A DNA stretch of 64,000 bases from Ilumatobacter sp. (GCA_035556435.1 DATMEY010000032.1:48720-112719); one strand, 5' to 3'; positions 5,835 to 58,254 are shown, counted from the first letter of the stretch. The notes: generated from the letters alone by a model not told the origin. Made by a program: numbers and translations.

Positions 5835-6240
5835 CTGGTGTGAGGCAAGGCTCGCGGCCGGTGACACGGTGGCCGCGCTCGGCACCGCGGCCGGTGTCAG
5901 CCGCCAGACCGCGAACGCGTGGCTGAAGCGCCACGGCCTCCAAGCCAGCCGCGGGCAGCGCCCACGGCCTGCGCCCGAGCAGATGGCGTCGGACTACGAA
6001 CGCACGCGCTCGATGCGCCGACTCGCGGACGAGTACGGCATCTCGCCCGCCGTCATGCGGACCTGGCTGTTCGAGGCTGGGATCGAGCCGCTCGGCACCG
6101 CCGGGCGACCCCGTGTCGCCACGATCGACCCGGAGCTGGTGGTCAAGCGCCGACAGCGCGGTGACACCTGGGCGGCGATCGCCGCCGATCTCGGCGTGTC
6201 GGTCGACACGCTGCGCCGCCGCGTCGCCGACCCGAGCTGA
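5797..6240 (+). CDS. Multi-HTH DNA-binding protein
   Basis: Three helix-turn-helix-like repeats: DTVAALGTAAGVSRQTANAWLKRHGL, RSMRRLADEYGISPAVMRTWLFEAGI and DTWAAIAADLGVSVDTLRRRVA. Start set at the internal ATG (MTSTMTPGIEDRDW); 5746 and 5809 are alternatives. Confidence 0.55.
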   Translation: MTSTMTPGIEDRDWCEARLAAGDTVAALGTAAGVSRQTANAWLKRHGLQASRGQRPRPAPEQMASDYERTRSMRRLADEYGISPAVMRTWLFEAGIEPLGTAGRPRVATIDPELVVKRRQRGDTWAAIAADLGVSVDTLRRRVADPS

Positions 6241-6280
6241 CCTCGCGCTCGTTGAGTCGCGTTCGTTGCGACTCGTGCGT

Positions 6281-11578: not shown

Positions 11579-11883
11579 GGGATGATCGCGTCGCCCCGGT
11601 ACATCGGCCCCAAGTCCTCGTCCGCCGACGTCGCCACCTGCCAGACCATCCACTCCAACGTCCGGCCCTGACGCACCACCTTCAAGAAGTGCCACTCCGT
11701 GCTCGGCCGCCACGTCTCCGCGAGGCCGATCACTTCCTCCACCAGATCGTCCAGCAGCTCCGCGTCCTCCGGCCACGGCATCATCAGCCGGTCCCTCAAA
11801 GCTGGGGAGGCGTAGAACAACACCATGTCCGCCAGCGTCTTGTTCGGCGGGAGCGACGGTGTCGAATAGGGATAGCTGCTCAT
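11500..11883 (-). CDS. Hypothetical 127-aa protein upstream of the giant methylase-helicase
   Basis: ATG at 11883 with GAGGAG ~9 nt upstream. Balanced composition: MSSYPYSTPSLPPNKTLADMVLFYASPALRDRLMMPWPEDAELLDDLVEEV...WHFLKVVRQGRTLEWMVWQV. Its stop lies at the most likely start region of the giant gene. Confidence 0.6.
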   Translation of the reverse strand: MSSYPYSTPSLPPNKTLADMVLFYASPALRDRLMMPWPEDAELLDDLVEEVIGLAETWRPSTEWHFLKVVRQGRTLEWMVWQVATSADEDLGPMYRGDAIIPWAIDLDTLPRYATPPTMLVRDDDLD

Positions 11884-12163
11884 TGGGAACCTTGCTCCTC
11901 GCCGCCCGGTTGCGGCGCGCCGTGTCCAACGACGACACACCCCGATCGTTCGCTTCATCATCATGGCCTCCACTCGGCGGACTCACGACCCGCACTCCCG
12001 TCGATCACTGTCGACAGCACGGATCACCACGCGGGAAGAAGCCATCACACCCCCTACAGGCACCCTCGGGCTGGCGTGGGGACGCACGATTCTTCGAGAA
12101 GGCCCACCAACGTACCGCCCGACCGCCTGCCGCCCGCGGACCCTTTGCGCGTCCCGCTCTCCG

Positions 12164-12853
12164 CTACCGCCAGAAGCCCTCGCGGCGCACCGGCAGTGGG
12201 CGGGCCGCGGTCGCCCGCGTCCGGGTTGGCGTCGACGCGCTCGGCCGGGTGAAGCCGAGCCCGTACATCCAACGCGTCAGCGAGTCGTTCTCATGCCACG
12301 CAGCAACCAGACCCTCGCACAACCTCAGAAACGATGCGTTCTCCGCCTCGGTCAGCGCCACACGTTCTCCGCCCTGGACCGCCCGCCGAAGCGGTGCCGC
12401 CAACACGCGCCGCTCGGACCCGAACCCGACCGCGGTCAACGCGCGGAACCGGTCGGCTGTCCCGACCAGCGCCGTCGACGTCGTGCCGACCGATCGGGCG
12501 TACTCCTCGAGGTCGTCGGCCAAGCCGCCGCGGGCGTCCGTCAGCGATGCGACCGCGGCGGCATAGTCGTCCACGGCCGCTGCCGGTACGTCGAACACTT
12601 GAACCTCAACGTGCTCCCAACGCCCATCAGGCGCATACAGCCCGATCGGCACCGCCCGCGCCAGCGCCGACCGCAACACACCGATCGCCTCCGCTCCAGC
12701 GGCGAACAGACCATCCGGGTCCAACGCCGCCGCGTCGTCGGCCGCGTCCGGCCGCAACCACAGCAACAGCTCCTCAACCGGCGCGGTCTCGTGAAGCACA
12801 TCGCCGTCGAGGTGCGGCACGATCAACGTCCGCCGGTCGCGCATCCGCATCAT
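12164..12853 (-). CDS. Hypothetical 229-aa protein translationally coupled to the PAPS-reductase-like gene
   Basis: ATG at 12853 overlaps the upstream stop (ATGA, 12853-12850). Sequence MMRMRDRRTLIVPHLDGDVLHETAPVEELLLWLRPDAADD... No motif recognised. Confidence 0.55.
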   Translation of the reverse strand: MMRMRDRRTLIVPHLDGDVLHETAPVEELLLWLRPDAADDAAALDPDGLFAAGAEAIGVLRSALARAVPIGLYAPDGRWEHVEVQVFDVPAAAVDDYAAAVASLTDARGGLADDLEEYARSVGTTSTALVGTADRFRALTAVGFGSERRVLAAPLRRAVQGGERVALTEAENASFLRLCEGLVAAWHENDSLTRWMYGLGFTRPSASTPTRTRATAARPLPVRREGFWR

Positions 12854-13836
12854 GTGAAGCACGCACCCGCTGAACAATCGAACGCCAGGGCGTCAACATC
12901 GAACAGCTCGCCCTGGCCGGAGTCAGCGATGACCTGGCGGCGAGTGCGCAGATCGGCCTCGCGGAGCGAGACGAGCGAACCGTGCAGGTACATGCTTCCG
13001 GCGAAGGCCACATTGCCGCGGGCGTTGAACCCGCCACCGTGGCGAATGCTGTCGTCAAGTTGGCACGCGCGCTCGAACAGGTCAGGGTGCTCCTCGCGTA
13101 GCGCCTGCCAACGGCCGTTGCCCTGATTCGGGCAGAACCAACATGCCGAACGCGGCGGTCTCGGGTGCCCGTGCTCGGTGAACCAGCGGATCGTGTCCTC
13201 GCGACGCATCCGCAACTCGATCAACGGCCAGCGATTGCTCTGCCACGGATCGAACCCTGCACAGTTCCCCGCGCCGCCGGCGTGCGCAGCCCGCGTCGTG
13301 CCACACCGGCACTCATCGCCTGGCTTCATCCGGCCGATCTCATCGAGCGAGAACCCGATCCATTGCTCGACCGTGGCGCGCTTCCATGCTCCTCGACCGC
13401 CACACAACGCCTTGACCTTGCGGGTCACCTGCCGACGCTTGTAGTCGTAGGAACACCGGTACTGACCGATGCGACCCTTGGAACCATCGGGATTGAGGAC
13501 GTGTACCGGCGGGGTCGGGTTGCTCGACGTCGGGACCGGTGAGAGCAGAGCCTGCTCCAAGCTGCCGGCGGTCACCACATGAAACTCGATCCCGGCGGCC
13601 TCAACGATCGGACGCAGGTAGCTCAGGTAGGCATAAGTCTCTGGGAGCTCGCCGTGTGTGTCGGCGAACACGATGTGGTCCAACAGCGGCAGGTCACCGG
13701 CCGCTGACATCAGCGCCAACGCACACGACTGAGTACCTCCTCCCAACGACAGAACTCGCAAGCACGGTTCGTCAGCGTTGCGCCCACTTGGGCTGCCGAG
13801 TGGAGACTGGTCGGAGTGTCGGGCAGGCGGTGCCAT
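12850..13836 (-). CDS. Phosphoadenosine-phosphosulfate (PAPS) reductase family protein (DndC/IbrA/BrxP-like PP-loop ATPase)
   Basis: PP-loop-like N-terminus VLSLGGGTQSCALALM, then FADTHGELPETYAYL, Cys-rich C-terminal part (CRCG...CAGF...ACWFCPNQ). This is typical of the PF01507 family found on mobile elements. Confidence 0.7.
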   Translation of the reverse strand: MAPPARHSDQSPLGSPSGRNADEPCLRVLSLGGGTQSCALALMSAAGDLPLLDHIVFADTHGELPETYAYLSYLRPIVEAAGIEFHVVTAGSLEQALLSPVPTSSNPTPPVHVLNPDGSKGRIGQYRCSYDYKRRQVTRKVKALCGGRGAWKRATVEQWIGFSLDEIGRMKPGDECRCGTTRAAHAGGAGNCAGFDPWQSNRWPLIELRMRREDTIRWFTEHGHPRPPRSACWFCPNQGNGRWQALREEHPDLFERACQLDDSIRHGGGFNARGNVAFAGSMYLHGSLVSLREADLRTRRQVIADSGQGELFDVDALAFDCSAGACFT

Positions 13837-13867
13837 CGACCGCTACAGGGCCACGGACACGCCGCTC

Positions 13868-13893
13868 GGGACGCACTCTCGGCGGTGCGTCCC
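13868..13893. promoter_or_regulatory. 9-bp-stem inverted repeat in a divergent intergenic region (candidate operator)
   Basis: GGGACGCAC-TCTCGGCG-GTGCGTCCC lies between the PAPS-reductase-like gene start (13836, minus) and the excisionase-like gene (13976, plus). Confidence 0.3.
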
Positions 13894-13975
13894 CGCACCC
13901 GCGACGGTGATTCACAGTCGAGTATGAGGGGCACCGAGACCACCGCGAAGAACCGACCGAACCCTCGGCCCACCG

Positions 13976-14233
13976 ATGAGGTACACGATGTCGACGTTTG
14001 ACAAGGACCGCATTCACGAGACGCTCACGGGCCAGCGTGGCCTGCTCATCACCGTGCCCGACGCCGCCGCCGTGCTCGGCTTGCATGAACGGACGCTCTA
14101 CACGCTCGCAGCCAACGACACGGCACCGGTCCCGGTCGTCCGGTTCGGTGCTCGTGTGGTCCGGTTCCGCCTCGCCGACCTACGTGTCTTTCTCGGGCTG
14201 GCCCCGCTCGACACTGAAGCACTCGCTTCCTGA
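13976..14233 (+). CDS. Excisionase-family / MerR-like helix-turn-helix DNA-binding protein (Xis-like)
   Basis: ITVPDAAAVLGLHERTLYTLAAN...VVRFGARVVRFRLADLRVFL matches the HTH_17/excisionase pattern. The alternative start ATG is at 13988. Confidence 0.65.
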   Translation: MRYTMSTFDKDRIHETLTGQRGLLITVPDAAAVLGLHERTLYTLAANDTAPVPVVRFGARVVRFRLADLRVFLGLAPLDTEALAS

Positions 14234-14284
14234 CCACGGAAGGCGCCGGGCGTGACGATCACCACATAGCTAGCTTCGCGTTCC

Positions 14285-14491
14285 GTGAGGACCGTCCCGC
14301 CGATCACCCGAACACGGGTCACCGACGATGAGGTCCGCGCGCGTGCGAACGCTTGGAAGGCCGCGCACCCCGGATTCGACGAACGCAACTTCCCCGACGC
14401 GTTCCGCGACGAATCCGGCGAGCTGATCGAGGACGACGAGTTCTTCGACGCGGTCGACCTGTTCGCGCTGTTCAACTCGCTACCTACGTAG
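14285..14491 (+). CDS. Hypothetical acidic 68-aa protein
   Basis: GTG-start ORF with plausible composition (MRTVPPITRTRVTDDEVRARANAWKAAHPGFDERNFPDAFRDESGELIEDDEFFDAVDLF). No homolog recognised. Confidence 0.35.
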   Translation: MRTVPPITRTRVTDDEVRARANAWKAAHPGFDERNFPDAFRDESGELIEDDEFFDAVDLFALFNSLPT

Positions 14492-14511
14492 GGCGTGCAA
14501 TCGGCGCGCTG

Positions 14512-14829
14512 CTACGGAGTCAGCCGAGATGCCCAGTAGGCTGGCGTCTGACGTTCGTGAGCGACTGCGACGACGCGAATCTCGTCGTCGGAGACCGCGT
14601 ACACCAACAGGTACGGGTAGCGCCTCAATCTCACCTGTCGGGCGAGTAGGACGCCGGCGAGGCCCACACCGGGGCACCCGCATTCGGGAAACGATTGAGC
14701 GTTTCGATCCGTGCGAACACGGCGTCGGCGAAGTGGTCACCACGTCCGCGATCGCGTTCCTCGTAGAAGCGTGCGGCCTCGGCGATCTCGTTGACCGCCT
14801 CGGGGGCCGAGACGAACTACTCGACTCAC
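14512..14829 (-). pseudogene. ParE/RelE-family toxin gene disrupted by two compensating frameshifts
   Basis: GTG at 14829 overlaps the antitoxin stop (GTGA). Frame A gives MSRVV and then nonsense with a stop at 14737. Frame B (~14816-14632) gives FVSAPEAVNEIAEAARFYEERDRGRGDHFADAVFARIETLNRFPNAGAPVWASPASYSPDR*. Frame A resumes at ~14637 with QVRLRRYPYLLVYAVSDDEIRVVAVAHERQTPAYWASRLTP*. The joined product is a typical ~105-aa ParE. Confidence 0.65.
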
Positions 14830-15071
14830 TCGACGGCGAGCGCAGCCTTGACCTGTTGCCGCGCCACCGACGGCTCGACACCTACCGACTCGCCGCTGGC
14901 AAATTGCTCGATCCGTCGCTCGACCTCGCGTGCCCACGCTTGTGCGCGTTCGGGTGAGTAGTCAGGGTCCGGACCTTCGAGGCTGGCAAACAGCTCGGCG
15001 GCGACATGGGCACGTTCGTCCTGCGACAGCGCCATCGCGCTACTGAGAACGCTGTCGACGTCGGTGCTCAT
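14826..15071 (-). CDS. Addiction-module antitoxin (TIGR02574-like component)
   Basis: Internal ATG at 15071 of track ORF 14826..15296. Sequence MSTDVDSVLSSAMALSQDERAHVAAELFASLEGPDPDYSPERAQAWAREVERRIEQFASGESVGVEPSVARQQVKAAL fits the LSxxER...W..E..RR...G pattern of this family. Confidence 0.7.
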   Translation of the reverse strand: MSTDVDSVLSSAMALSQDERAHVAAELFASLEGPDPDYSPERAQAWAREVERRIEQFASGESVGVEPSVARQQVKAALAVE

Positions 15072-15141
15072 GGCCAACGGTCTACTTCGCTGCCGCGCGG
15101 CGGTGCCTGCGATGACCCGATCACCGTCGGGACACACATTC

Positions 15142-15390
15142 TCAGTGCCGCGGGTCGCGGTCGCGCTGCCGGCGTGGAGCGACGACTGGTCCACCCGTTG
15201 ACGGCTGCTGTCGCCGCGGCGTGCTGACGAGTTCGAAGCGTCGACGCCACGCCGCGTGGTGCGCGGCGACCCACCACTGCAAGGTGTCGTCGTCAATGCC
15301 GTCGGGCCGCAAGCCTTGCTCGGCGACGACGTGACTGGCCGCTCGGTACTCCTTCACCAACCGAGCCAGCCCACGATCCAGCTCCGACAA
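15142..15390 (-). CDS. Small hypothetical ORF separated from its ATG and promoter by the IS256 insertion
   Basis: Track ORF (TTG start). After removing the IS and one target-duplication copy, the frame extends to an ATG spanning 16828-16826 (MGERPDPETAPLSELDRGLARLVKEY...). The C-terminal third is Arg/Pro-rich, so coding status is uncertain. Confidence 0.3.
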   Translation of the reverse strand: MSELDRGLARLVKEYRAASHVVAEQGLRPDGIDDDTLQWWVAAHHAAWRRRFELVSTPRRQQPSTGGPVVAPRRQRDRDPRH

Positions 15391-15422
15391 CGGCGCCGTC
15401 TCAGGATCAGGTCGCTCGCCCA

Positions 15423-16819
15423 GTATGAGTCCCGCGGCGTGGTGGGGTTCGCGTGACGCGATCCCTGGTGGTCGTCAGGTTCCGGGTTCGAGATCGGCGG
15501 TGACGACGTCGGCAGTATCGCGCGTGGCGTAGAGCTTGGCCATCGAGGCTTCCGAGAAGTAGCGGCGGGCGACGGCCCACTCGTCGTGTTGGTCGCCGAG
15601 GACGGCGCCGACGAGGCGGATCACGGCGGGGTCGTTGGGGAAGATGCCGACCACCGCGGTGCGGCGGCGGATCTCCTTGTTGAGTCGTTCGAGCGGGTTG
15701 TTCGACCAGATCTGGCGCCAGTGCTCGCGGGGGAACGCTGTGAACGCCAACACGTCGTGGCGGGCGCCGTCCATCAGCGCGGCGGCCTTGGGGAACCGCT
15801 CGGCGAGCATCACCGCGACTTCGTCCCAACGCTGGGCGACGTCGTCGGGGTCGGTGAGCGTGAAGATCGACCGGAACGCCGCGCCGACCATCTCCTGGGA
15901 GGCTTTGGGGACCGGGGCCATCAGGTTGCGGACGTAGTGGACGCGGCACCGCTGCCACGACGAGCCCTGGAGGTTCTTGCGGATCGCGGCCCGCAGGCCC
16001 TCGTGCGCGTCGCTGATGACGAGGCGCACGCCTGTCAGGCCGCGGGCCTTCAACGACCGCAGGAACGCCGTCCAGAACGTCTCGGCCTCGCTGTCGCCGA
16101 CGTCGACGCCGAGCACCTCACGCCCGCCCTGAGCGCTCACGCCGGTCGCCACCACGACCGCCCGGGACACGACCTGGCCGAGCGCGTCGTCGCGGACGTG
16201 GACGTAGATCGCATCGAGGTAGACGTACGGGAACTCGGTGTGGCCGAGCGTGCGGTTGCGGAACGCGGCGACGCGTTCGTCGAGGCCGGCGCAGATCCGG
16301 GAGACCTCGGACTTGGAGATCCCGCTGGAGGCGCCCATCGACTCGACGAGCGCGTCGACCGAGCGGGTCGACACCCCGGACACGTAGGCCTCCATCACGA
16401 CCGCGTGAAGGGCCTGGTCGATACGGCGGCGCGGCTCGAGGATCGTCGGGAAGAACGAGCCCTTACGCAGCTTCGGGATCGCCAACTCGAGATCACCGGC
16501 CTTGGTCGTCAACGTGCGCGGCCGGTGTCCGTTGCGTTCGGTCACCCGGTCAGCCGAGCGCTCATAGCGGCCGGCGCCGATCACCTGCGTGGCTTGGACT
16601 TCGATCAGTTCTTGGGCCAGGTACTCGGCCAGCTCGCGCACCAGATCGATGCCGCGATCGCGGTCGGAGAGCGCGACAAGAAGTTCGGACAGGGCAGACT
16701 CAGACAGAGCCATCGGTGTGTTCTCCTCGGTTCGTTCTTGCTGGAACACACCAAGGATCACGCCGATGGCTCACCGGCAGGTGGACCTACGAATCCCCAC
16801 CACCCCACGGGGCTCTATC
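15423..16819 (-). mobile_element. IS256-family insertion sequence (1,397 bp) with 8-bp target-site duplication
   Basis: Imperfect terminal inverted repeats: GTATGAGTCCCGCGGCGTGGTGGGGTTCG (15423-) versus the reverse complement of the right end, GATAGAGCCCCGTGGGGTGGTGGGGATTCG (-16819). Flanked by direct repeats CTCGCCCA at 15415-15422 and 16820-16827. Contains a single transposase gene. Confidence 0.9.
15475..16713 (-). CDS. IS256-family (Mutator-type) transposase
   Basis: MALSESALSELLVAL...RYERSADRVTERNGHRPRTLTTKAGDLELAIPKLRKGSFFPTILEPRRR...YLDAIYVHVR...VISDAHEGLRAAI...WQRCRVHYVRN...NPLERLNKEIRRRT is the canonical IS256 signature. ATG at 16713 with GAGGAG upstream. Confidence 0.95.
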   Translation of the reverse strand: MALSESALSELLVALSDRDRGIDLVRELAEYLAQELIEVQATQVIGAGRYERSADRVTERNGHRPRTLTTKAGDLELAIPKLRKGSFFPTILEPRRRIDQALHAVVMEAYVSGVSTRSVDALVESMGASSGISKSEVSRICAGLDERVAAFRNRTLGHTEFPYVYLDAIYVHVRDDALGQVVSRAVVVATGVSAQGGREVLGVDVGDSEAETFWTAFLRSLKARGLTGVRLVISDAHEGLRAAIRKNLQGSSWQRCRVHYVRNLMAPVPKASQEMVGAAFRSIFTLTDPDDVAQRWDEVAVMLAERFPKAAALMDGARHDVLAFTAFPREHWRQIWSNNPLERLNKEIRRRTAVVGIFPNDPAVIRLVGAVLGDQHDEWAVARRYFSEASMAKLYATRDTADVVTADLEPGT

Positions 16820-24574: not shown

Positions 24575-25330
24575 GTGCATCCGTTCCTCGACTGGCCGGG
24601 GCCGCTGGCGTTCGCCCACCGGGGCGGGGCCAGCGATCACCCGGAGAACACGCTGCCCGCGTTCCGGCACGCGGTCGAGCTCGGGTACACGTACCTCGAA
24701 ACCGACGTCCACGCCACCACCGACGGGATGCTCGTGGCGTTCCACGACGCCGACTTGTTGCGCACGTGCAACCGGCCGGGCCGGATCGACGCGCTGCCGT
24801 GGCGCGAGGTCGGCTCGGCGCGGGTGGCGGGCACCGAACCAATCCCGCTGATGGAAGACCTGCTCGACGAGTTCCCCGCGGCCCGCTTCAACATCGACTG
24901 CAAGGCCGACACCGGTGTCGCCCCGCTGGTGCGCCTGCTGCGGCGCCGCCCCGAGTTGCTCGACCGGGTGCTGATCGGCGGGTTCTCCGATGCCCGCCTG
25001 CGCCGCATCCGGGCGTCGGTCGGCGAGCGTCTGTGCACCAGCTTCGGGCCGCAGCAGGTCGCCGTGTTGACGGCCGGCGGGCGCGTGCCCCGCTGGTTGA
25101 TAGGGGGTGGCCAGGCGGCGCAGGTGCCCACCGGGCGCGGGCGGGTGCGGCTGGTGACGCAGCGGTTCGTGCGCCGGGCGCACGCTCAGGGGCTCCAGGT
25201 GCACGTGTGGACGATCGACGACGCGGCCGAGATGCACGCCCTGCTCGACCTCGGGGTGGACGGGATCATGACCGACCGGCCTGCGGTGTTGCGCGACGTG
25301 TTGCGCGAACGTGGTACCTGGTATGAGTAA
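24575..25330 (+). CDS. Glycerophosphodiester phosphodiesterase family protein
   Basis: AHRGGASDHPENTLPAFRHAVELGYTYLETDVHATTDGMLVAFHDADL and VWTIDD are GDPD signatures. Confidence 0.85.
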   Translation: MHPFLDWPGPLAFAHRGGASDHPENTLPAFRHAVELGYTYLETDVHATTDGMLVAFHDADLLRTCNRPGRIDALPWREVGSARVAGTEPIPLMEDLLDEFPAARFNIDCKADTGVAPLVRLLRRRPELLDRVLIGGFSDARLRRIRASVGERLCTSFGPQQVAVLTAGGRVPRWLIGGGQAAQVPTGRGRVRLVTQRFVRRAHAQGLQVHVWTIDDAAEMHALLDLGVDGIMTDRPAVLRDVLRERGTWYE

Positions 25331-26930
25331 CCCACACCTCACCGACATTCCCGCCCAGTTCTCTGCCAGCGGCCGCGGCGGCCTGGTCGCCAGCGCCGAT
25401 CGGCTGGCTACCGCGGCCGGCATCGAGATCCTGCGCCGCGGGGGCAACGCGGTCGACGCGGCGATCGCCACCAACGCGGCGATGGCTGTGGTCGGGCCGC
25501 ATCTGTGCGGCATCGGCGGCGATCTGTTCGCGCTCGTCCACGTCGACGGAACCGTGTACTGCCTGAACGCGAGTGGACGCGCCGGGTCGGGTGCTTCGGC
25601 TGCCGCGTTGCGCGACGATGGCTTCACCGAGATGCCGTTCCGTCACGACATCCGCACGGTCACCGTGCCCGGATGCATCGATGGCTGGGTCGCGCTGCAC
25701 GCCCGGTTCGGGTCGCTGCCACTGGCCGACCTGCTCGCCCCGGCGACCCGGTTGGCCACCGAAGGCTTTCCCGCCAGCCCGCTGCTGGCCTTCTCGATCC
25801 GCCGTGTCGACGACGCCGCCCGCCGCAACCTGGCGGTGCTCGCCGACCAGGCCACGCGGGCCGACGCCCCGGTGCGCCTACCCGGTGTGGCACGTGCGTT
25901 GGCCGCCGTAGGTGCCGACGGCCGGGCCGCGTTCTACGAGGGCGAGTTCGGCGAGGGGCTGCGACAACTCGGTGGCGGGTGGTTCTCTACCGACGACCTG
26001 ACCGACGTCCAGGCCAAGTGGGTGCAGCCCCTGAGCGCCGACGCGTTCGGTGTGACGCTGCACACGGTGCCGCCGAACTCGCAGGGTTACCTCACCATCG
26101 CCGCCGCCCGGCTGGCCACCGCGGTGGGCTTGCCCGACGACCCCGACGACCCCCAGTGGGCGCACACCTTGGCCGAGTGCGCCAAGCAGGCCGGGTTTGA
26201 CCGGCCCGACGTGCTGTTCGACGATGCCGACGGGGAGGCGCTGCTGGCCGCGATCGACGAGCGCGCGGGCCACGTCGACACGCTGCGGGCGAGCGGCCTG
26301 AACGCGCCCGGTCTCGACGGTGACACCACCTATCTGTGCACGGCCGATGCGACCGGCATGGGCGTGTCGTTGATCCAGTCGAACGCGTCCGGGTTCGGGT
26401 CGTGGCTGGCCGAGCCGAACACGGGCATCAACATCCACAACCGCGGGCTCGGCTTCTCGCTGAGGCCCGGGCACCCCGCCGAATTGGCGCCCGGCAAGCG
26501 CCCACCCCACACGCTGTCACCGGCCATCGCCACACGCGGCCGGGCACTGGCCTCGGTGTTCGGCACGATGGGCGGCGACGCCCAGCCGCAGATCCTGCTG
26601 CAACTCGCGGCGCGCCTGTTCGCCGCCGGGCAGGCGCCCGCCGAGGCGATACCGGCTGGGCGGTGGGCCCTGGCCGGGCCCGACACCGGGTTCGACACGT
26701 GGCAACACGGAGCAGCCGTCCCCGACGGTGCGCGCCTGACCGTCAACGTCGAGGGTCACGCACCCGCCGGCTGGGCAGCCGACCTGGCTGCGCGCGGTCA
26801 TCGCGTCGCCGAACTCGGGCGCTACGACACCGCGTTCGGTCACGCCCACGCGATCGTGGTCGGCAGTGACGGCCTGCTGGCGGGTGCCGCCGACCCCCGG
26901 ACAGTCGTCGGCAGTTGCGACACCGTGTAG
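25323..26930 (+). CDS. Gamma-glutamyltransferase family protein
   Basis: GGNAVDAAIA, autoprocessing nucleophile region GDTTYLCTADATGMGVSLIQSN, and TMGGDAQPQ. The ATG at 25323 overlaps the end of the upstream gene. Confidence 0.85.
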   Translation: MSNPHLTDIPAQFSASGRGGLVASADRLATAAGIEILRRGGNAVDAAIATNAAMAVVGPHLCGIGGDLFALVHVDGTVYCLNASGRAGSGASAAALRDDGFTEMPFRHDIRTVTVPGCIDGWVALHARFGSLPLADLLAPATRLATEGFPASPLLAFSIRRVDDAARRNLAVLADQATRADAPVRLPGVARALAAVGADGRAAFYEGEFGEGLRQLGGGWFSTDDLTDVQAKWVQPLSADAFGVTLHTVPPNSQGYLTIAAARLATAVGLPDDPDDPQWAHTLAECAKQAGFDRPDVLFDDADGEALLAAIDERAGHVDTLRASGLNAPGLDGDTTYLCTADATGMGVSLIQSNASGFGSWLAEPNTGINIHNRGLGFSLRPGHPAELAPGKRPPHTLSPAIATRGRALASVFGTMGGDAQPQILLQLAARLFAAGQAPAEAIPAGRWALAGPDTGFDTWQHGAAVPDGARLTVNVEGHAPAGWAADLAARGHRVAELGRYDTAFGHAHAIVVGSDGLLAGAADPRTVVGSCDTV

Positions 26931-27125
26931 GCAGACGTCAGCCCTGAGCAGTCCGCCAGGCGCCCGCCGCGGCCAGGTGCTCTCGGTCAAGTGTTCCTCA
27001 AGACGTGTCCCGTCCATGTCAAGGACGTGCCGCGCCGGCCGATGAACGCCTCGCAGTAGCAGGGCCCCAACCCCTGCTCGACCCAGCCGCCCGGCTGGGA
27101 GCCGGGAAGCGAGGACGCGAGCAGG

Positions 27126-27632
27126 ATGCGTGTGGGAACCGAGGGCCGAGCGCGACCGGTCAATGGCCGCATCGCGCGCGGCGATGGCTACACACTGGTC
27201 GAGATCGTGGTCACGATCGCGATCCTCGGGATCCTGGTCGTGGCGATCCTCAATGCAGTCATCACCGGTATCAAGGCGAGTGCCACCAGTCACAACGCTG
27301 CTCGCGTCGAGACCGCGATCGTGAACGCCGCCGACCGAATCAATCGGGCCCCGAAACGCTGCAACTACACGATGTACGCCCAGGCTGCCGTACTCAGCGA
27401 AGGCTGGGACGCTTCACAGGCCAGCGTGTTGATGCAGTACTGGGTGCCCGGCGCGACGTCGGCCAGCCCTGGCCGCTGGGAGCCCGCTAGTCCGGTGCCT
27501 TGGCAAGCAGGTAGCGGGTGCGGGGTGAACATTCGGCCCCCCGACCTAATCGTCCAAAAAGTGCTGGTCACAATTTCCAGCCCGAACGGTGCCGTGACCC
27601 GGCAGATCGAGGTGGTGAAGTCCGATGTCTGA
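27126..27632 (+). CDS. Prepilin-type (class III signal peptide) pilin/pseudopilin
   Basis: Leader ...RIARGDG followed by YTLVEIVVTIAILGILVVAIL. This is the canonical G/(F,Y,M)TLxE cleavage-methylation motif, with Glu at +5 and a hydrophobic alpha1-N helix. Confidence 0.75.
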   Translation: MRVGTEGRARPVNGRIARGDGYTLVEIVVTIAILGILVVAILNAVITGIKASATSHNAARVETAIVNAADRINRAPKRCNYTMYAQAAVLSEGWDASQASVLMQYWVPGATSASPGRWEPASPVPWQAGSGCGVNIRPPDLIVQKVLVTISSPNGAVTRQIEVVKSDV

Positions 27633-30600
27633 CACCGGCGCCCCGCGTACTGACACCCGAATCGGCGACTCCCGCGACCGCGGCATGACGCTGCCCGAGC
27701 TGATGATTGCCGTGACGGTCGCGGCCTTGATCGCTGGCGTGCTGGCGACTTCGATCATCGTCACCATGCGCCAGCGTGACAACACCGAGGGTCGCCTGAA
27801 CGTCGCCCGCGCCGAACAGAACGTCAGCATGTGGATGCCGGCCGACCTGGCCTCGGCCGACACGGTCAACACCAGCCCGTGGTTGACGCCGTGCGGCAGC
27901 GCCATGTGCGATGACATCTACCTCGGTGACGGATCGAATGTGTTGATGCTGGAATGGAGTGAGGCCGGCGAGGGTGACGCGCTGTGCCCCCCAGAAGGCA
28001 TGCACAACTGCACCGTGACCCGCGTGTCGTACAACTTCTATCCCGCACCCGACGGCAACCTGTACGAGTTGCGTCGCGTCGAGTGTGTCTCCGCCGATCT
28101 GGTGGCGTGGTCGTGCTCGCAGAACGTCATCTTGCGTGAGTTGCCCGGGCCTCCCGGTGGTGTCGACTTCGTGCCTGGCGTGGGCATGGGGGCTGTCGAG
28201 TGCATCGAGCGCGAGAATGATCCAACCCAGACCAACTGCACTCGACCTACCTGGGTCATCATCGTCAGCGAGCCACTCGACCCGTGCGCCGGCCTTGAGG
28301 CGAGCGAACTCACAGCATGCATCGGTGTCGGTGAACCTGGCGGCACGATCAAGAACGCCAACAGGGTGATCGTCTCGATCAACGGCGGTGGCGACAGCAG
28401 CGGCTCGGGCGGTGGCATCAACCAGATCAGCATCACCGCCGGTGGTACTGCTCGCCGCACCATCAGTGCCGACAGCATGACTGGCGCACCGAGTTTCCTC
28501 GAGGCGAAGAGCCGTTGTGGTGGCCCGCTGACGCTGATCATCGACCAGTCTGGCTCGATCGTCAACACCGGTTACGGCCCCGGGCGTGTGCGCGAGGCGG
28601 CGATCGAGTTCGCCCGGCTCCTCCGTGGCACTCCTGTCGACATCCAGGTGATCGAGTTCGACACGACCGCCAACGTGCTCGGCGACGGCGAGTCGGTCCG
28701 GCCCGAGCCTGGGTGGCACGAGTACTTCGAGATGAGCGAGCAGGATGATTGGGAGCGCCTCGAGTCGCTGTTGGCAGGGATGACATTCGGTGGAGGTACG
28801 AACTGGGAGGACGCGCTGTTCCACACGTTCTTCAACCCTGACGGCACCACCCCGCAGATCGTGCCCAAGACCGTGGTGTTCTTCACCGACGGTGTACCGA
28901 CCTACAGCCGACAGAGCTACCGCAACGCCTTGGGGATGCCGCCGGCGTCACCGCTCTACGACGGCAGCCTCTGGCAGACCTACAATCCCAGCAACGGCAG
29001 GTGGACCAACGGCGAGAGCGGCGCGAACTACAACCAGGGGGCCTTCCACCGCGCGGAGAACATCGCCATGAAGGTCCGCGCCGAGCAGGGCGGGTACGTC
29101 CGCATCATCGGTGTTGGCGTGGGCGGCATCAACGACAACTCGCAGTGGGTGAGCAACCCAGGCGCCGGCTATCAGAACGCGTGGGAGCACGCCTACGGCC
29201 GATACCAACAAGGAACGACCGAATACCGCAGCAACCTCGACTTCGAATACGCCAGCACCTTCCGCACCAACGGCAACTATCAGCAGGCGACCAGCAACTG
29301 GCGGTCGACGGGCGACTTCGAGCGGGGTAACGGGTTCCAGACGAACCATCGCTTCCAACGGCGAGAATCGGGTAGTTGGCAGAACACGAACGCCGCCACG
29401 TACTACGCCAACAACACCACGCCGGACGACAGCGACGGCTACCGCATCAATGGCACCACCTCGTGGGCGACGCTGACCGAGGCTCTCTACGACGCGCACC
29501 GCGAATCGTCACCGTCGAACTTCCGGGTGAGTTCCTGGACCGACGCGACCCCGACCGACTACTTCACGAGCCAGCCGTCGGCACCCACCAAGTGGCGAAT
29601 CAACGGCACACGGTCGGCCTACAACATCACCCAGGCGGTGTTCTCGGCGTACGCCCATCTTGAGCCGTCGTACTTCACTGCGACCTGGACCAACCGGACG
29701 GTCACCGACTACTACGCCGGTCAGCCGTCGGCGCCCGGACTTTGGCGAATCAACGGCACACGCGGGACTTGGACCACGATCACTGCCGCCCAATTCGCGG
29801 CCTACGCCCATCTCAACCCGACCTACTTCGATGCGAACTGGGCCGACCGTACGCCCACCCAGTACTACAGCGGCCAACCGGCCGCACCCGACAACTGGCG
29901 GATCAACGGCACTCGCGCCTGGTACACCGTGACGGAAGCCGAGTTCAACGCGTACCACGGTGGCGACACCTCGGTGAACTGGAGCCCGATGACCTGGTCG
30001 TGGGTATCGAAGGCCGTGTACGACGCGGGCGTGGCGACCGACCCGGACAGCTTCCGCGACACCGGAACCAATACGTCGCTGCCTGTGACGACACCCGGCG
30101 CCGAGTTCGAGGTGGTCGGCGCCCGCGGCACGCCGGAGGACCATTACCGGCAGGTGAAGGTCTACCCCGCCAACGGGCCATACGACGGCATCCAGGACCG
30201 CTCGGTGGCGCCCACGTCCGGGAAGACCATCCTCGCCCGGTTGGTCGCCGGCAACGACACCGGTCTGCCGTACGTGCCTGCGGACGCAGAGGGCAACGAC
30301 AACGCCGAAGAGGCGAACATGTTCGTGATCCAGGGCAACAGTGACGCAGCTTGGGCAGAACTGACACCAGCGATGAGGGCCATCGCGCTCGGCCAGTGTG
30401 GCGGCACCCTGACACTCTCGACCAAGACATCGAACGGCCAGAGCGTCTCGGCACCATTCACCTACGAGAACTCGGCGGTCTTCCACGCCGACGGCGCCGC
30501 GGTCGAGCCGTTCCAGCCAAACATCGTCACGACCAATGCCCATGATCGCCAGAAGGGTTTCGACTACGCGGTGCCGGGGGGCACGTTCATCACGACTGAG

Positions 30601-30834
30601 ATTCGGCCGCAGGCCTCGTCCGTGCTGCTGCGTTTCCAGCCGCTCGGGTGGGAATGCCGGGCTGGCGCGCGCGTGCTGGGCGCGGCCGATATGAACGAAC
30701 AACCGATCGAGCTCGTCGTCACCAATCCGGACGGTACGACCACGACGGTGCTGTCTGGGTGGAGCCAGATCTCGGTACGAATCGGAGCGAACGAGGCCGT
30801 CTCGTGCACACTTCGGGTGGCGCAGACCTCGTGA
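27625..30834 (+). CDS. 1,069-aa modular pilin-like protein: prepilin N-terminus, vWA module, Trp-rich tandem repeats
   Basis: N-terminus DSRDRG/MTLPELMIAVTVAALIAGVL (Glu +5). vWA/MIDAS region LTLIIDQSGSI ... GGTNWEDAL ... VVFFTDGVPT ... VRIIGVGVG (~28510-29130). Roughly 50-aa tandem repeats at 29440-29958. Its start overlaps the upstream gene by 8 nt. Confidence 0.75.
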   Translation: MSDTGAPRTDTRIGDSRDRGMTLPELMIAVTVAALIAGVLATSIIVTMRQRDNTEGRLNVARAEQNVSMWMPADLASADTVNTSPWLTPCGSAMCDDIYLGDGSNVLMLEWSEAGEGDALCPPEGMHNCTVTRVSYNFYPAPDGNLYELRRVECVSADLVAWSCSQNVILRELPGPPGGVDFVPGVGMGAVECIERENDPTQTNCTRPTWVIIVSEPLDPCAGLEASELTACIGVGEPGGTIKNANRVIVSINGGGDSSGSGGGINQISITAGGTARRTISADSMTGAPSFLEAKSRCGGPLTLIIDQSGSIVNTGYGPGRVREAAIEFARLLRGTPVDIQVIEFDTTANVLGDGESVRPEPGWHEYFEMSEQDDWERLESLLAGMTFGGGTNWEDALFHTFFNPDGTTPQIVPKTVVFFTDGVPTYSRQSYRNALGMPPASPLYDGSLWQTYNPSNGRWTNGESGANYNQGAFHRAENIAMKVRAEQGGYVRIIGVGVGGINDNSQWVSNPGAGYQNAWEHAYGRYQQGTTEYRSNLDFEYASTFRTNGNYQQATSNWRSTGDFERGNGFQTNHRFQRRESGSWQNTNAATYYANNTTPDDSDGYRINGTTSWATLTEALYDAHRESSPSNFRVSSWTDATPTDYFTSQPSAPTKWRINGTRSAYNITQAVFSAYAHLEPSYFTATWTNRTVTDYYAGQPSAPGLWRINGTRGTWTTITAAQFAAYAHLNPTYFDANWADRTPTQYYSGQPAAPDNWRINGTRAWYTVTEAEFNAYHGGDTSVNWSPMTWSWVSKAVYDAGVATDPDSFRDTGTNTSLPVTTPGAEFEVVGARGTPEDHYRQVKVYPANGPYDGIQDRSVAPTSGKTILARLVAGNDTGLPYVPADAEGNDNAEEANMFVIQGNSDAAWAELTPAMRAIALGQCGGTLTLSTKTSNGQSVSAPFTYENSAVFHADGAAVEPFQPNIVTTNAHDRQKGFDYAVPGGTFITTEIRPQASSVLLRFQPLGWECRAGARVLGAADMNEQPIELVVTNPDGTTTTVLSGWSQISVRIGANEAVSCTLRVAQTS
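29440..29958 (+). repeat. About 3.5 tandem ~50-aa (about 150-nt) coding repeats inside the modular pilin
   Basis: Units begin at YRINGTT, WRINGTRSAY, WRINGTRGTW and WRINGTRAWY. Consensus: W-R-I-N-G-T-R-x3-I-T-x-A-x-F-x-A-Y-A-H-L-x-P-x-Y-F-x-A-x-W-x-x-R-T-x-T-D/Q-Y-Y-x-G-Q-P-S/A-A-P. Confidence 0.75.
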
Positions 30835-33269
30835 CCATCCCGGGCCGCTTCCGTCACCCTGAACACCGGGCCATCGCCGATCAACGCGATCGTGGCTCGG
30901 TGCTGATCCTTGCGCTCGTTTTCATGGTGATTGGAGCGATGATCGTGCTGCCCTTGCTGTCGTACTCGATGGCGGTGTTGCGGGCGAACTCGGTACTCAG
31001 CAACAAGACCCAACGAATCGAAGCCGTCAAGGGCGGCCTACGTGCCTCGCTGGCCAATCCGCTCGACCTCTACAAGACGTGCGGCGAGGGTGAGTCGCTC
31101 AGTTCGGTGGACGTCAACGGGATGACGGTGTACAACGAGTGTCGCTTCCTGTACGCGGCCAAGGCGCTCGCCGAGACCGAGATCCGTTACGGAATCGTCA
31201 CCACACAGGTCGGCGAGTCGGCGCCGCCGTACCTTGCCGGGTCGCGGTACGAGCCGGTCGACCCTGACTCGGCGACCGGTTGGTTGGCCGACACCACGCT
31301 CGACTCGGTCACCGGCAACATCATGTTGCCGAACCTGCCCGTGTACGGCACCAGCCCACGCTCGCCGCTCGGTTCGCAGATGCCCGAAGACTACGTACCC
31401 GACGGATACGACAGCTGCAAGGTGTTCTTCCCGGGCAAGTACGTCGACGCGCTGACGCTCGACGGCCCGGCGTTCTTCGTCAGCGGGATCTACTACTTCA
31501 CCCAGCCGGTCACCATCCTCGGGGGCGCGCGCGTGGTCGTGGGCGACGGCACTCACGAAGGGTGCACAACCTCGCAGGAGGCGGTGTTCTACGCAGAGCC
31601 ACCACCTTCGGGCTCCCACAACGTCAACGGACTCGGCGCGACGTGGGTACTTGGCGACGCGGCTCGTGTCGTGTTCGACAACACGAGGACGCGTGACGGC
31701 TCACCGAATGCACAGCCGATCGAGTTCACGTTCAACCAGCGCTACGTCGCTCCGAAAGATCTGGCGAGCCGGCCCTCGGCCGACGTGTCGATCGTGACCG
31801 TCAACGGTGACCTGGAACGCACGCCCGACTTGCCCGGCGAGGGTCGCTATCTCGAAGTACACGATCCGGCCGATCCGGCTCGGCCGATCCTGCACGTGCC
31901 CGAGCAGTTCATCGGCGCAGTCGCCGACGACCCCGACACTCCCGATGTCAACGAGTCGGACACCGTCCGCGACACCGGCGAGAGCGCGACGGCTGCCGGG
32001 TACGTACCATCGGTGTTCACTCCCAAGCCACGGGTACCAGGTAGCCCAACCGGTGTGTCCGTCCAGACACATGACCAAACGCTGATCGTCCGCTGGTCGG
32101 CGCCCAGCGACGACGGCAACTCGCCGATCGTCGGCTACGTGGCTCGCGCAACGACAAACAACGGCGCTATCGAGGCGGGCACGTGCGCGACCAACGGTGC
32201 GCTGGAATGTGTGATCACCGGGCTCAACCCGGCGCTCGACCACAAGGTGAGTGTCGAGGCGATCAACCACTGGATGACCCAGCAGGATCCGCCGCGGACC
32301 CCCAACCCGTGGGTGTCGACGGCGACCTGGAAGCCAACCGGTAGTTCCCTACCGGCCCCGTTCGAGCCACCCGCTCCCACGGTGGCGATGTACCGCGACG
32401 AAACGGAGACCGACCCGCGCGCCGCTGGCGTGGCTCACGTCGAGTTCGTGCTCCCCACACCCACCCAGGGCAGCACGCCCGTCAGTGGATACGAGATCGA
32501 GCACCGCCAGATCACCGACGGTGACGGCGCACCCGTGACCCAGCTGTGGGAGTCGTGCAACGGTGACGAAACGCCAGACGTCAACGCGACCGTCGCCGAA
32601 CTGGACCCAGCAACGCTGTACTGCGACGTCACCGGGCTCGACCCGACCGCGTCGTACGAATTCCGAGTGGTGGCGCAAGCAACGTCGACCCTGGCGACCG
32701 CCTCACCAAGCCCCTCCCCTGTCTACGACCGGACCGACGCCGGGACGGTCGCCGCGGGCGCTCCCGATCACGCGGCGCTTGACACGATCGACCCACTCGA
32801 CCCGTACTACGGGCTGTTGGCTGCCTACGTCGAGGCCGCCTGGGAGCCGCACGCCGACCACGCGCCGCCTCCGGCGGCGTTGCCAGCTCCGGGCCCGCCG
32901 ATCCCCGTGGTCGAGTTCAACCTCATCAACCCTGATGCGACCGCGGTGATCAACATCGCCAGCTACGTGGCAGTCCCCCAGGGCCGCTTCGTACTCGACA
33001 ACCCGAGCGGCTATGACGTGCGCATCGGCGGCGGCGTGCTCGCCTCCAGCATGGCGATCGACGACAGCCGTTCCACGTGCGCTGGATCGGCGCCGCCCGG
33101 GTGTGTGCCCGACGCGCCCGAGATCGTTCCTGTCGGGCTCCGGCCGGTCGAGGTGCAACGCAAGTTCATGATCCTTTCCACCGTCACGACCGGTCGCGAG
33201 CGCTCGGTGGCGGTGGTGCAGGTCAACCAGAACGGCGCCTATGCCGTGAACTCCTGGGAAGTCCAGTAG
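30831..33269 (+). CDS. TadE/TadG-like N-terminal anchor protein with two fibronectin type III domains
   Basis: The GTG at 30831 overlaps the upstream stop (GTGA). N-terminus DRGSVLILALVFMVIGAMIVLPLLSY is Tad/TadG-like. FN3-like segments: PGSPTGVSVQTHDQTLIVRWSAPSDDGNSPIVGYV... and ...TPVSGYEIEHRQ...YEFRVVAQA. Confidence 0.65.
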   Translation: MTIPGRFRHPEHRAIADQRDRGSVLILALVFMVIGAMIVLPLLSYSMAVLRANSVLSNKTQRIEAVKGGLRASLANPLDLYKTCGEGESLSSVDVNGMTVYNECRFLYAAKALAETEIRYGIVTTQVGESAPPYLAGSRYEPVDPDSATGWLADTTLDSVTGNIMLPNLPVYGTSPRSPLGSQMPEDYVPDGYDSCKVFFPGKYVDALTLDGPAFFVSGIYYFTQPVTILGGARVVVGDGTHEGCTTSQEAVFYAEPPPSGSHNVNGLGATWVLGDAARVVFDNTRTRDGSPNAQPIEFTFNQRYVAPKDLASRPSADVSIVTVNGDLERTPDLPGEGRYLEVHDPADPARPILHVPEQFIGAVADDPDTPDVNESDTVRDTGESATAAGYVPSVFTPKPRVPGSPTGVSVQTHDQTLIVRWSAPSDDGNSPIVGYVARATTNNGAIEAGTCATNGALECVITGLNPALDHKVSVEAINHWMTQQDPPRTPNPWVSTATWKPTGSSLPAPFEPPAPTVAMYRDETETDPRAAGVAHVEFVLPTPTQGSTPVSGYEIEHRQITDGDGAPVTQLWESCNGDETPDVNATVAELDPATLYCDVTGLDPTASYEFRVVAQATSTLATASPSPSPVYDRTDAGTVAAGAPDHAALDTIDPLDPYYGLLAAYVEAAWEPHADHAPPPAALPAPGPPIPVVEFNLINPDATAVINIASYVAVPQGRFVLDNPSGYDVRIGGGVLASSMAIDDSRSTCAGSAPPGCVPDAPEIVPVGLRPVEVQRKFMILSTVTTGRERSVAVVQVNQNGAYAVNSWEVQ

Positions 33270-33272
33270 CGG

Positions 33273-33347
33273 GGTCTCGATACACCGGCTGCGCCGGCAC
33301 TCGACCACCGGTGCCCAGGGTCGGCGCGCAGGGCCCGTGTCGAGACC
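33273..33347. repeat. Family-B palindromic repeat, copy B1 (inner right arm degenerate)
   Basis: GGTCTCGATACACCGG...GGCACTCGACCACC...CCGTGTCGAGACC lies between convergent genes (stops at 33269 and 33354). Aligns with B2 at 41182-41268. Confidence 0.7.
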
Positions 33348-33353
33348 ACTGCG

Positions 33354-34514
33354 TCAGGTGAGCAGGGGGGCTACTTCGGCCATGAAGCGTTGCATTTGTT
33401 CGTCGGCCTTCTTGTAGGGGTCGCCGAGCAGGTGCGGGAAGATCGTGAGGTGCTCGACGCCGAGTAGGTCGCGGTAGAACTGGATGCCCTCGGCGACGTC
33501 GGCGGGCGTACCGAGCAGGATCGTCTTGTTGGCGATCGACTCGTCGAGCGTGGGGATCAGGCCGGGCTGGGCCGGCTTGCCGTCGGCACCCATGTAGCCG
33601 CGGCTCCACCCGTACGGGCCGAGGAACTTCCAGAACTCGTCGTGGCCCGGGGTGGCGGTGCGCACCGCCTCCTCGTAGGTGTCCTCGATGCGCACAGCGA
33701 TGACGAGCATGCGCTGCTCGCCGGCTGTCAGCGTGGTGCCGTGTGCGCCTTCGTACACCTCGCCATAGCGGTCCCACATGCGCTTGATGAACGAGTAGTG
33801 CTGGTTCCAGAACACCGCCCCGTGGCCGACGGTGGGCACGTAGTCGAGCGTGGGCGGGCTGGTGACCGCCTGCCAGATCTCGTACGGGAACACCGGCCGC
33901 GGCACCAGCGTCAGGTGCTGCACGGTGGTGCCCCGGTCGGGGATGCCCGGCACCGGGATCTGGAAATGCTTGCCGCTGAACGCGAACGTCTCCTGGCTCA
34001 GTGCCCGGCGGACGATCTCCATCGACTCCTCGAACACCTCGCGGTTGCGTTCGTCGTCGGCGCGCTGGTCGGGGTTGTCGTGCGAGCCGATCGACACACC
34101 CTTGTCGTTGAGGTGCAGCACCTCGCGCGGTACCGTGCCGCGGCCCACCCCGAGGATGCCGCGCCCGCCAGACAGGTTGTGCAAGGTGGCGAAATCCTCG
34201 GCGAGGCGCAGCGGGTTCCACTGCGGCACGACGTTGAACATCGTGCCGAGGCGGAGGCGGCTGGTGCGGGCGGCGATCCACGTCGACAGCTGGATGCCGT
34301 TCGGGATCACCTCGTAGCCCTCGTACTGGAAGTGGTGCTCGGTGGTCCAGAACGAGTCGAACCCGGCCTGTTCGGCGACCAGCGCCGAGTCGACGTAGTC
34401 GAGCACGGCCTGCCAACACTGGGCGTTGTCGTAGCGCCGGTCCATCGGTGCCGGCGGCCCGGCACCCGCGTCGTCCATCTCCACGCCGCCGAAGAAGAAC
34501 GCTCCGTAGTGCAT
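33354..34514 (-). CDS. LLM-class (luciferase-like) flavin-dependent oxidoreductase
   Basis: MHYGAFFFGG...AEQAGFDSFWTTEHHFQYEGYEVIPN...LGTMFNVVPQWNPLRLAEDFATL. The internal ATG at 34514 was chosen; the upstream part of the track ORF overlaps the divergent gene. Confidence 0.85.
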   Translation of the reverse strand: MHYGAFFFGGVEMDDAGAGPPAPMDRRYDNAQCWQAVLDYVDSALVAEQAGFDSFWTTEHHFQYEGYEVIPNGIQLSTWIAARTSRLRLGTMFNVVPQWNPLRLAEDFATLHNLSGGRGILGVGRGTVPREVLHLNDKGVSIGSHDNPDQRADDERNREVFEESMEIVRRALSQETFAFSGKHFQIPVPGIPDRGTTVQHLTLVPRPVFPYEIWQAVTSPPTLDYVPTVGHGAVFWNQHYSFIKRMWDRYGEVYEGAHGTTLTAGEQRMLVIAVRIEDTYEEAVRTATPGHDEFWKFLGPYGWSRGYMGADGKPAQPGLIPTLDESIANKTILLGTPADVAEGIQFYRDLLGVEHLTIFPHLLGDPYKKADEQMQRFMAEVAPLLT

Positions 34515-58175: not shown

Positions 58176-58254
58176 GGTTGCCGAGCGATCGCTCGCGCCT
58201 CCCAGCCGGCAGCACCCTCTACGGCCGGCGCGCGTCGCTACCATCTGGCCCCGC

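Follow-up and report, generated by a model that had tools for sequence, protein, structure and literature searches.

Streptococcus sanguinis possesses three operon-encoded minor pilins (PilABC) that are proposed to be located at the tip of its type IV pili and to be needed for pilus assembly; PilA lacks the glutamate at position 5 (Glu5), and two subunits are modular, with von Willebrand factor A (vWA) and lectin modules (PMC9934059; PMC8179133). In the HIJK complexes (GspH/I/J/K; FimU/PilV/W/X), a priming/tip complex is capped by a bulky subunit without Glu5 (PMC9934059), and diderm bacteria display PilY1, an adhesin with a vWA domain, at the tip (PMC8179133). Modular pilins with grafted domains are widespread, vWA and FN3 (IPR003961) being among the listed modules; the main text of this survey contains no mention of Actinobacteria (Raynaud et al. 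2021, PMC8179133). Here we analyze three overlapping genes for pilin-like proteins (gene 1, gene 2 and gene 3; together, the trio) at positions 27126-33269 of a 64-kb stretch of DNA (referred to below as the window) from a metagenome-assembled genome (MAG) of Ilumatobacter (Acidimicrobiia, Actinomycetota) with a GC content of about 70%. The trio probably encodes minor pilins of a type IV pilus, which would be assembled into a priming and tip complex by a PilB/PilC/PilD/PilT machine encoded elsewhere. It is most likely a lineage-specific version of a known design rather than a system of a novel kind. Essentially no descriptions exist of the type IV pili of Actinomycetota, especially those of the abundant aquatic and soil Acidimicrobiia, and our literature search found no paper on type IV pili of Ilumatobacter or Acidimicrobiia. 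The three genes are as follows:

27126..27632, plus strand: gene 1, small prepilin of 168 amino acids (aa), leader ending in RGDG followed by YTLVE
27625..30834, plus strand: gene 2, modular prepilin of 1069 aa, leader ending in RDRG followed by MTLPE
30804..33269, plus strand: gene 3, large pilin-like protein of 821 aa without Glu5, leader ending in RDRG followed by SVLILALV

The open reading frames (ORFs) behind these genes span 27126-27632, 27625-30834 and 30648-33269, and all three frames are backed by the GC content at the codon positions. The preliminary description of this DNA, made from the sequence alone, had already noted three overlapping genes with an 8-nt overlap at 27625, and the ORF coordinates bear this out: genes 1 and 2 share the sequence ATGTCTGA. 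It had further placed a GTGA overlap at 30831. This sequence is indeed present, the TGA of gene 2 being shared with a GTG at 30831; as the start of gene 3, however, it is not the one used in public gene calls, which begin at the GTG at 30804 and give the protein of 821 aa. A purine-rich stretch is found 5' of both candidate starts. Antisense ORFs within the operon (e.g., 27568-28824 and 29509-30702 on the minus strand) were rejected as high-GC artefacts on the basis of the codon-position GC pattern. The exact product of gene 2 is named a prepilin-type protein at NCBI (Ilumatobacter MAG) and is also present on the JGI contig Ga0182745_1000060.

The evidence for prepilin signals comes from both profile matches and conservation. 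Gene 1 reaches 25.1 bits with PF07963 and 23.3 bits with TIGR02532, and gene 2 reaches 22.0 and 22.3 bits, respectively, all of them over the curated cut-offs (21.2 bits for PF07963, 16.3 bits for TIGR02532); gene 3 matches neither of the two families. Among the homologues of gene 1, the glycine at -1 (G21) and the glutamate at +5 (E26) are invariant (31 of 31 each) and the aspartate at -3 occurs in 30 of 31, while D-3, G-1 and E+5 are each found in 18 of 18 homologues of gene 2, where T22, L23 and E25 are invariant in the alignment as well. Thus, the class III signal peptides proposed earlier for genes 1 and 2 are supported, and the Gly at -1 and Glu at +5 of their G/xTLxE motif have proved to be conserved. 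In the gene 3 family, D-3 and G-1 are present in 29 of 29 homologues, and position +5 is occupied by Leu, Met or Ile in 29 of 29 and never by Glu. A leader end of the form R-D-x-G is the common consensus of all three families, and each of the three proteins has a single hydrophobic run, located directly after the Gly. With gene 1, a profile search of the PDB matched type IV pilins in their alpha1 helix and nothing else. Gene 1 stands directly 5' of gene 2 in all related loci holding sequence there.

Gene 2 has at least 329 homologues, most of them from Ilumatobacteraceae MAGs. Its AlphaFold2 (AF2) model has a mean predicted local distance difference test score (pLDDT) of 73.6 and can be divided into four parts:

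27685..28509, plus strand: pilin module (residues 21-295), made up of a helix at the N-terminus, a beta-sheet and a Gly-rich segment that is conserved
28522..29124, plus strand: vWA domain (residues ~300-500) with a complete metal ion-dependent adhesion site (MIDAS; D307-x-S309-x-S311, T392, D422)
29137..30114, plus strand: stalk-like region of long beta-hairpins (residues 505-590) followed by four repeats (~580-810)
30202..30831, plus strand: C-terminal beta domain (residues ~860-1069), conserved and Cys-containing

The pilin module is modelled with a helix at residues 23-42 (low pLDDT) and strands at 80-205. The model confidence of residues 210-295 is low, yet R247, V248, G254, G255 and G273-274 of this segment are invariant. 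The vWA/MIDAS module, which had been noticed from its motifs before, scores only 16.5 bits with Pfam VWA_2 against a cut-off of 27. The assignment of a vWA domain is nevertheless sound, because most gene 2 homologues match PF00092 or PF13519, the MIDAS residues D307, S309, S311, T392 and D422 are invariant in 22 aligned sequences, and the region is modelled as a confident vWA fold (pLDDT 73-92) for which Foldseek finds many solved vWA domains, including those of S. sanguinis PilB (7b7p/7ba2), SpaC and PitA. Furthermore, the PDB profile search with gene 2 gave the vWA entry 9das at E 1.5e-7. The Trp-rich repeat module also mentioned in the preliminary description consists of four Trp/Tyr-rich beta-alpha units of ~51 aa, anchored on (W/Y)RINGT at residues 606, 657, 707 and 758, and is also visible in the DNA, where Tandem Repeats Finder (TRF) detects a period of 153 nt (76% matches) over 29641-29917. 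The stalk-like region has pLDDT values of 85-92, and the copy number of the repeats differs between homologues of gene 2. The C-terminal domain (pLDDT 72-88) is kept in all aligned homologues, with C925, G926-T928, C1011 and C1061 invariant. Pfam has no family for the hairpins, the repeats or the C-terminal domain.

The protein encoded by gene 3 was modelled with a pLDDT of 77.2 and a predicted TM-score (pTM) of 0.65. The following parts can be distinguished:

30891..31052, plus strand: predicted alpha1-like helix (residues 30-83), 54 residues, pLDDT 71-91
31095..32003, plus strand: beta-rich core (residues ~98-400), kept in short (470-500 aa) and long homologues
32049..32681, plus strand: pair of FN3 domains (residues 416-488 and 526-626), inserted after the core and before the C-terminal domain
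32910..33266, plus strand: C-terminal beta domain (residues ~703-821), in all full-length homologues, ending in NGAYAVNSWEVQ

The sole hydrophobic run of this protein comprises residues 31-49 and is followed by an invariant proline, P50, 19 residues past the Gly. The core family is small, comprising 748 clusters in a set of 1.84 billion representative proteins, and neither the core nor the C-terminal domain (pLDDT up to ~93) has a Pfam or PDB relative by sequence, as judged by profile searches and a Pfam scan of 26 core members. A known fold for the core was not obtained with Foldseek either, which gave only FN3 matches, and a search for a bridging domain through weaker members of the family yielded nothing usable (only DUF7305 at E 0.054). 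The two FN3-like domains, in contrast, are confirmed by PF00041 (E 1e-13, in two stretches) and by Foldseek matches to FN3 tandems (E 1e-11). They are missing in the short homologues of 470-500 aa; the relatives P0132 and P0139 possess a C-terminal PA14 domain (PF07691) on top of FN3, in P0166 and P0167 an F5/8 type C discoidin domain (PF00754) replaces FN3, and many relatives are without any extra module. Gene 3 is therefore modular as well. One protein of 962 aa, P0415, has the gene 3 core from residue ~652 and a weak N_methyl N-terminus, and may be a fusion of gene 2 and gene 3 or a miscall.

The N-terminus of gene 3 had previously been read as a TadG-like anchor, and the operon as a mixture of Tfp-type and Tad-type N-termini. 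This view did not hold. No match to Tad (PF13400) or TadE (PF07811) was found at E<=1 for genes 1-3, only one of 26 gene 3 relatives reaches PF13400, at E=2.7, and gene 3 has the same R-D-x-G leader end as genes 1 and 2, followed by the 54-residue helix. Tad/TadG identity of gene 3 was therefore rejected. With its conserved cleavage site, the lack of Glu5 and the long N-terminal helix, gene 3 fits a third prepilin-like protein, namely a predicted Glu5-less "K-type" cap pilin with two FN3 domains.

The trio is more than a chance arrangement. A scan of species-representative genomes gave 74 loci, all in Acidimicrobiia and mostly in Ilumatobacteraceae (best match 61% identical), and the order gene 1-gene 2-gene 3 is retained in every locus with enough sequence; 11 loci contain two or three copies of the trio. 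The machinery for its assembly is not encoded nearby: no genes for T2SSE, T2SSF, Peptidase_A24, secretin, sortase or Tad proteins were found in the window, which was searched by tblastn (E. coli and Acidimicrobiia references) together with Pfam scans and precomputed tables covering the main predicted genes. The absence of machinery reported in the preliminary description is thus correct for the window, but its term "isolated" is an overstatement, as separation is the usual condition. Full 10-kb flanks are available for 40 loci; machinery occurs within this distance in just one of them and is absent from the other 39, hence unlinked is the normal state of the trio. On the other hand, in six loci altogether (L021, L026, L028, L029, L036 and L055) the trio lies inside or beside pilB, pilC, pilD and pilT (<=10 kb). 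It directly follows pilC in five of the six and precedes pilD in the three loci long enough to show this. In L026, the order is coiled-coil protein, PilB (MshEN and T2SSE, E 1e-117), PilC (T2SSF twice), gene 1-2-3, PilD (on the opposite strand; A24_N_bact at E 1e-27 and Peptidase_A24), PilT-like ATPase, DUF429 and a separate prepilin with an N_methyl score of 41 bits, which is likely the major pilin.

In Ilumatobacteraceae, PilB homologues are abundant, and a pilBCDT cluster is commonly found at a separate locus. These machinery loci have the arrangement PilB-PilC-PilD(-)-PilT-DUF429, followed in L084-L089 by genes for a set of 213-, 208- and 483-aa proteins. The match of the 213-aa protein to gene 1 is full-length (E 9e-13), that of the 208-aa protein (L084) is limited to the pilin module of gene 2 (E 4e-12), and that of the 483-aa protein is to the core of gene 3 without FN3 (E 1e-7). 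By sequence, this set is a stripped-down paralogous trio beside the machinery. At another machinery locus, L090, neither type of trio is present in cis.

Several other features recur at the machinery loci. A coiled-coil-like protein of 330-470 aa is encoded directly 5' of pilB in most of them, PilB carries an N-terminal MshEN in nearly all, and DUF429 is always 3' of pilT (coordinates of the recurring features: L026 5489-8306 and 16516-17232; L084 8613-11782 and 15029-15748). PilM/N/O families gave no match in the machinery loci examined. About 5 kb 5' of pilB lie genes for a Roadblock/LC7 protein and for a small GTPase of the Ras-like type (L084 3738-4757; also L085-L089). The same pair of domains is found in MglB/MglA, which acts as the polarity switch in the pilus motility of Myxococcus.

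The earlier proposal of a minor-pilin/tip-adhesin cassette that plugs into a machinery encoded elsewhere is strengthened by the six loci with a trio in or beside pilBCDT and by the separate pilBCDT loci of the family. In the proposed mechanism, the prepilin peptidase PilD would cleave each of the three proteins behind the conserved Gly, and the processed proteins would form a priming complex on PilC. In this complex, the bulky Glu5-less gene 3 would act as the cap, as GspK does in the HIJK complexes, the products of genes 1 and 2 would stack under it via their N-terminal helices, and the major pilin would polymerize below them. The vWA/MIDAS domain and repeat stalk of gene 2 and the FN3 domains of gene 3 would then be exposed at the pilus tip, where they may bind ligands or surfaces, whereas PilT would retract the fibre. 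The translational coupling of the genes might help to match the levels of the three subunits, and the scattered and duplicated cassettes may represent alternative, differently decorated tips for one machine.

A number of points weigh against this interpretation. Similarity to GspH/I/J/K, in sequence or profile, does not extend past the N-terminal helix, and neither gene 3 nor its 26 relatives match the PilX_N or T2SSK hidden Markov models (HMMs), so that the assignment of I/J/K-like roles relies on analogy. Cleavage of gene 3 is predicted solely from its conserved site. In the gene 2 model, confidence is low to moderate for the N-terminal helix and the pilin module. Finally, the prepilin peptidase, PilB and PilC of this particular organism are deduced from its relatives, its own data consisting of the 64-kb window; a JGI candidate for PilB of this genome was discarded because it came from a different sample.

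The closest known counterpart is S. sanguinis PilABC, followed by the HIJK complexes with PilY1; the trio would work like these, but membership by homology fails. As in S. sanguinis, three minor pilins are encoded together in a monoderm bacterium, one of them lacks Glu5, two are modular, and one of these has a vWA domain with MIDAS. The comparison with PilB made previously is apt, as PilB is a modular vWA pilin and its structures 7b7p/7ba2 are matched by the gene 2 model over ~420 columns, albeit at 11% identity. However, PilB is not among the PDB profile matches of gene 2 at E<=0.1; gene 2 has an analogous architecture and is not an orthologue. Gene 2 is also more than twice the size of PilB, with an extra repeat stalk and a conserved C-terminal domain. 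Furthermore, the Glu5-less subunit is the large modular gene 3 (821 aa) here and the small subunit in S. sanguinis, gene 3 has FN3 (PA14 or discoidin in its relatives) where S. sanguinis has a lectin module, and the trio cassette is usually unlinked from the machinery, often present in multiple copies, and has a bare counterpart at the machinery.

With the HIJK complexes, the trio shares an operon of minor pilins with a bulky Glu5-less subunit (gene 3, with its conserved cleavage site and overlapping genes), but it has three subunits and HIJK has four, and its vWA domain is fused to a pilin (gene 2), whereas PilY1 is a separate non-pilin protein. Orthology to GspH/I/J/K was rejected: hhalign against the E. 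coli proteins aligned the N-terminal 20-55 residues or nothing, i.e. not beyond the N-terminal helix, and the NCBIfam matches to GspI/J/H and PilV are far under the cut-offs. Modular type IV pilins in general have the same construction of an N-terminal pilin module of the IPR012902 type with grafted domains; what differs is the combination of pilin, vWA, Trp-rich repeats and C-terminal domain in gene 2, and the obligate three-gene context in Acidimicrobiia. The best whole-model Foldseek matches of gene 2 are the vWA pilus-tip adhesins SpaC (6m3y) and PitA (7w6b) (E 1e-7), but with very low TM-scores (0.11-0.15), and these proteins depend on a different assembly chemistry. Since neither an LPXTG motif nor a C-terminal hydrophobic tail is present in any of the three proteins, they can be ruled out as sortase substrates, and, as noted above, the window has no sortase gene.

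Three other explanations of the trio have to be considered. The first is that it builds a short filament or pseudopilus of its own, with gene 1 as the major subunit and genes 2 and 3 as accessories, i.e. a dedicated adhesion or secretion fibre. Gene 1 is indeed a small prepilin of the canonical type, its G-1 and E+5 being invariant, it always comes first in the cassette, and several genomes have two or three cassettes. We regard this as unlikely, however. The machinery loci contain separate, shorter pilins with much stronger N_methyl matches (the 41-bit prepilin in L026; proteins of 118-127 aa in L083, L084 and L090), and these look like the major pilins. The paralogue of gene 1 (213 aa) in the basic trio by the machinery corresponds to the pattern expected of a minor pilin, and no second machinery is linked to any cassette.

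It is even less probable that the proteins are membrane-anchored adhesins outside any filament, which use the prepilin N-terminus only as a signal-anchor, the machinery possibly having been lost from the genome. The machinery-free window and the 39 fully flanked loci without machinery within 10 kb would agree with this, but the strict conservation of G-1, D-3 and E+5 across the 74 loci argues for continued selection on peptidase processing and filament assembly, and the physical association of the trio with pilBCDT in six loci and the abundance of PilB homologues in Ilumatobacteraceae speak against it as well. Moreover, the contig with the PilB protein P0238 is 5,259,373 bp long, and the chromosome OZ257157.1, home of the trio L077, is likewise 5,259,373 bp in size; the flanks of L077 contain no machinery over a distance of ~10 kb (~7 kb on the side of gene 1).

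Actinomycetota commonly have Tad pili, but a Tad/Flp system, with gene 3 as a TadG-like protein and genes 1 and 2 as TadE/F-like pseudopilins of a Tad machine, is very improbable, as the superficial resemblance of the gene 3 N-terminus (DRGSVLILALV...) to TadG anchors and the single PF13400 match among the 26 relatives are outweighed by the lack of any significant Tad/TadE match in the three proteins, by the N_methyl/TIGR02532 matches of genes 1 and 2, and by the machinery linked to the trio in relatives (MshEN-PilB, two-domain PilC, A24_N_bact-PilD and PilT-like ATPase), which resembles that of type IVa pili (T4aP) and not TadA/B/C/V.

Returning to minor pilins assembled by a PilB/PilC/PilD/PilT machine, a broader and more tentative proposal can be made for the Acidimicrobiia. 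Their pilus could possibly be a minimal monoderm PilB/C/D/T pilus with a three-subunit tip, of which a bare version is encoded at the machine and decorated versions are scattered over the genome, often duplicated, as interchangeable adhesive tips. If so, the decorated tips would combine vWA and a repeat stalk on one subunit with FN3, PA14 or discoidin domains on the Glu5-less cap, and gene 3 would stand for a family of cap pilins that had no model before, with its 748 clusters and without relatives in Pfam or the PDB. A parallel may be seen in Myxococcus xanthus, which has multiple minor-pilin/PilY1 clusters as alternative tip sets for one T4aP machine; this bacterium is a diderm, and each of its sets consists of four minor pilins and a separate PilY1.

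The trio leaves the present view of type IV filaments as it is. It is, however, a testable candidate for attachment to particles, algae or cells through a metal-dependent vWA adhesin at the pilus tip, and it would extend the idea of modular pilins to a three-subunit complex whose Glu5-less cap is itself modular. Paralogous cassettes, some bare and some decorated, lend themselves as a natural system to separating the priming parts of a tip complex from its binding parts.

Two loci deserve separate mention with respect to cassette organization. In L004 (9472-20680; OY970375.1, a complete 4.69-Mb chromosome, at about 3.96 Mb), two copies of the trio stand in tandem, with proteins of 156/829/712 aa and then 170/657/728 aa. 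The genes directly after them encode DsbB and a thioredoxin-like protein, in keeping with the cysteines conserved in genes 1-3. In L018 (5706-14196), a gene 2-like pilin and a gene 3-like protein, both of them bare, are encoded directly 5' of a decorated trio, and this bare pair is 38% identical to the set in L084.

The genes flanking the trio do not belong to the system:

25311..26930, plus strand: gamma-glutamyltranspeptidase (GGT), 5' neighbour (PF01019, precomputed table)
33354..34514, minus strand: luciferase-like monooxygenase (LLM), 3' neighbour (PF00296, precomputed table)

Both had been named as neighbours in the preliminary description, and the family assignments agree. The GC content of the operon is 0.64-0.66 compared to 0.70-0.72 in its flanks. 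Recent horizontal transfer, which this dip might suggest, is countered by the fact that the same GGT and LLM neighbours flank the trio in a relative with no more than 59% identity in gene 2. Amino-acid composition is a better explanation of the dip, as the GC content at first codon positions (GC1) of gene 2 is only 0.57. The synteny of the trio itself, for which a search had been proposed, was established in the 74 loci described above. A regulatory RNA upstream of gene 1 was rejected, since Rfam gave no match at E<=1 over 26500-33600 and the 195-nt leader 5' of gene 1 folds no better than shuffled sequence (z -1.18). A scan for promoters and terminators gave nothing meaningful on the plus strand.

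Elsewhere in the window, the region 1-16770 looks like an integrated mobile element, with the following genes:

2-3493, minus strand: TrwC relaxase and AAA_30 helicase, running off the window
3106-4497: N6/N4 DNA methylase
4212-5834: DUF6349 protein
6281-12004, minus strand: SNF2/ResIII-like helicase of 1907 aa
15475-16770, minus strand: Mutator-family transposase (E 1e-139)

The window's right end (58045-63971) encodes a glycosyltransferase of the PMT_2 type and a GT-C AftD-like arabinofuranosyltransferase of 1596 aa (E 2e-79).

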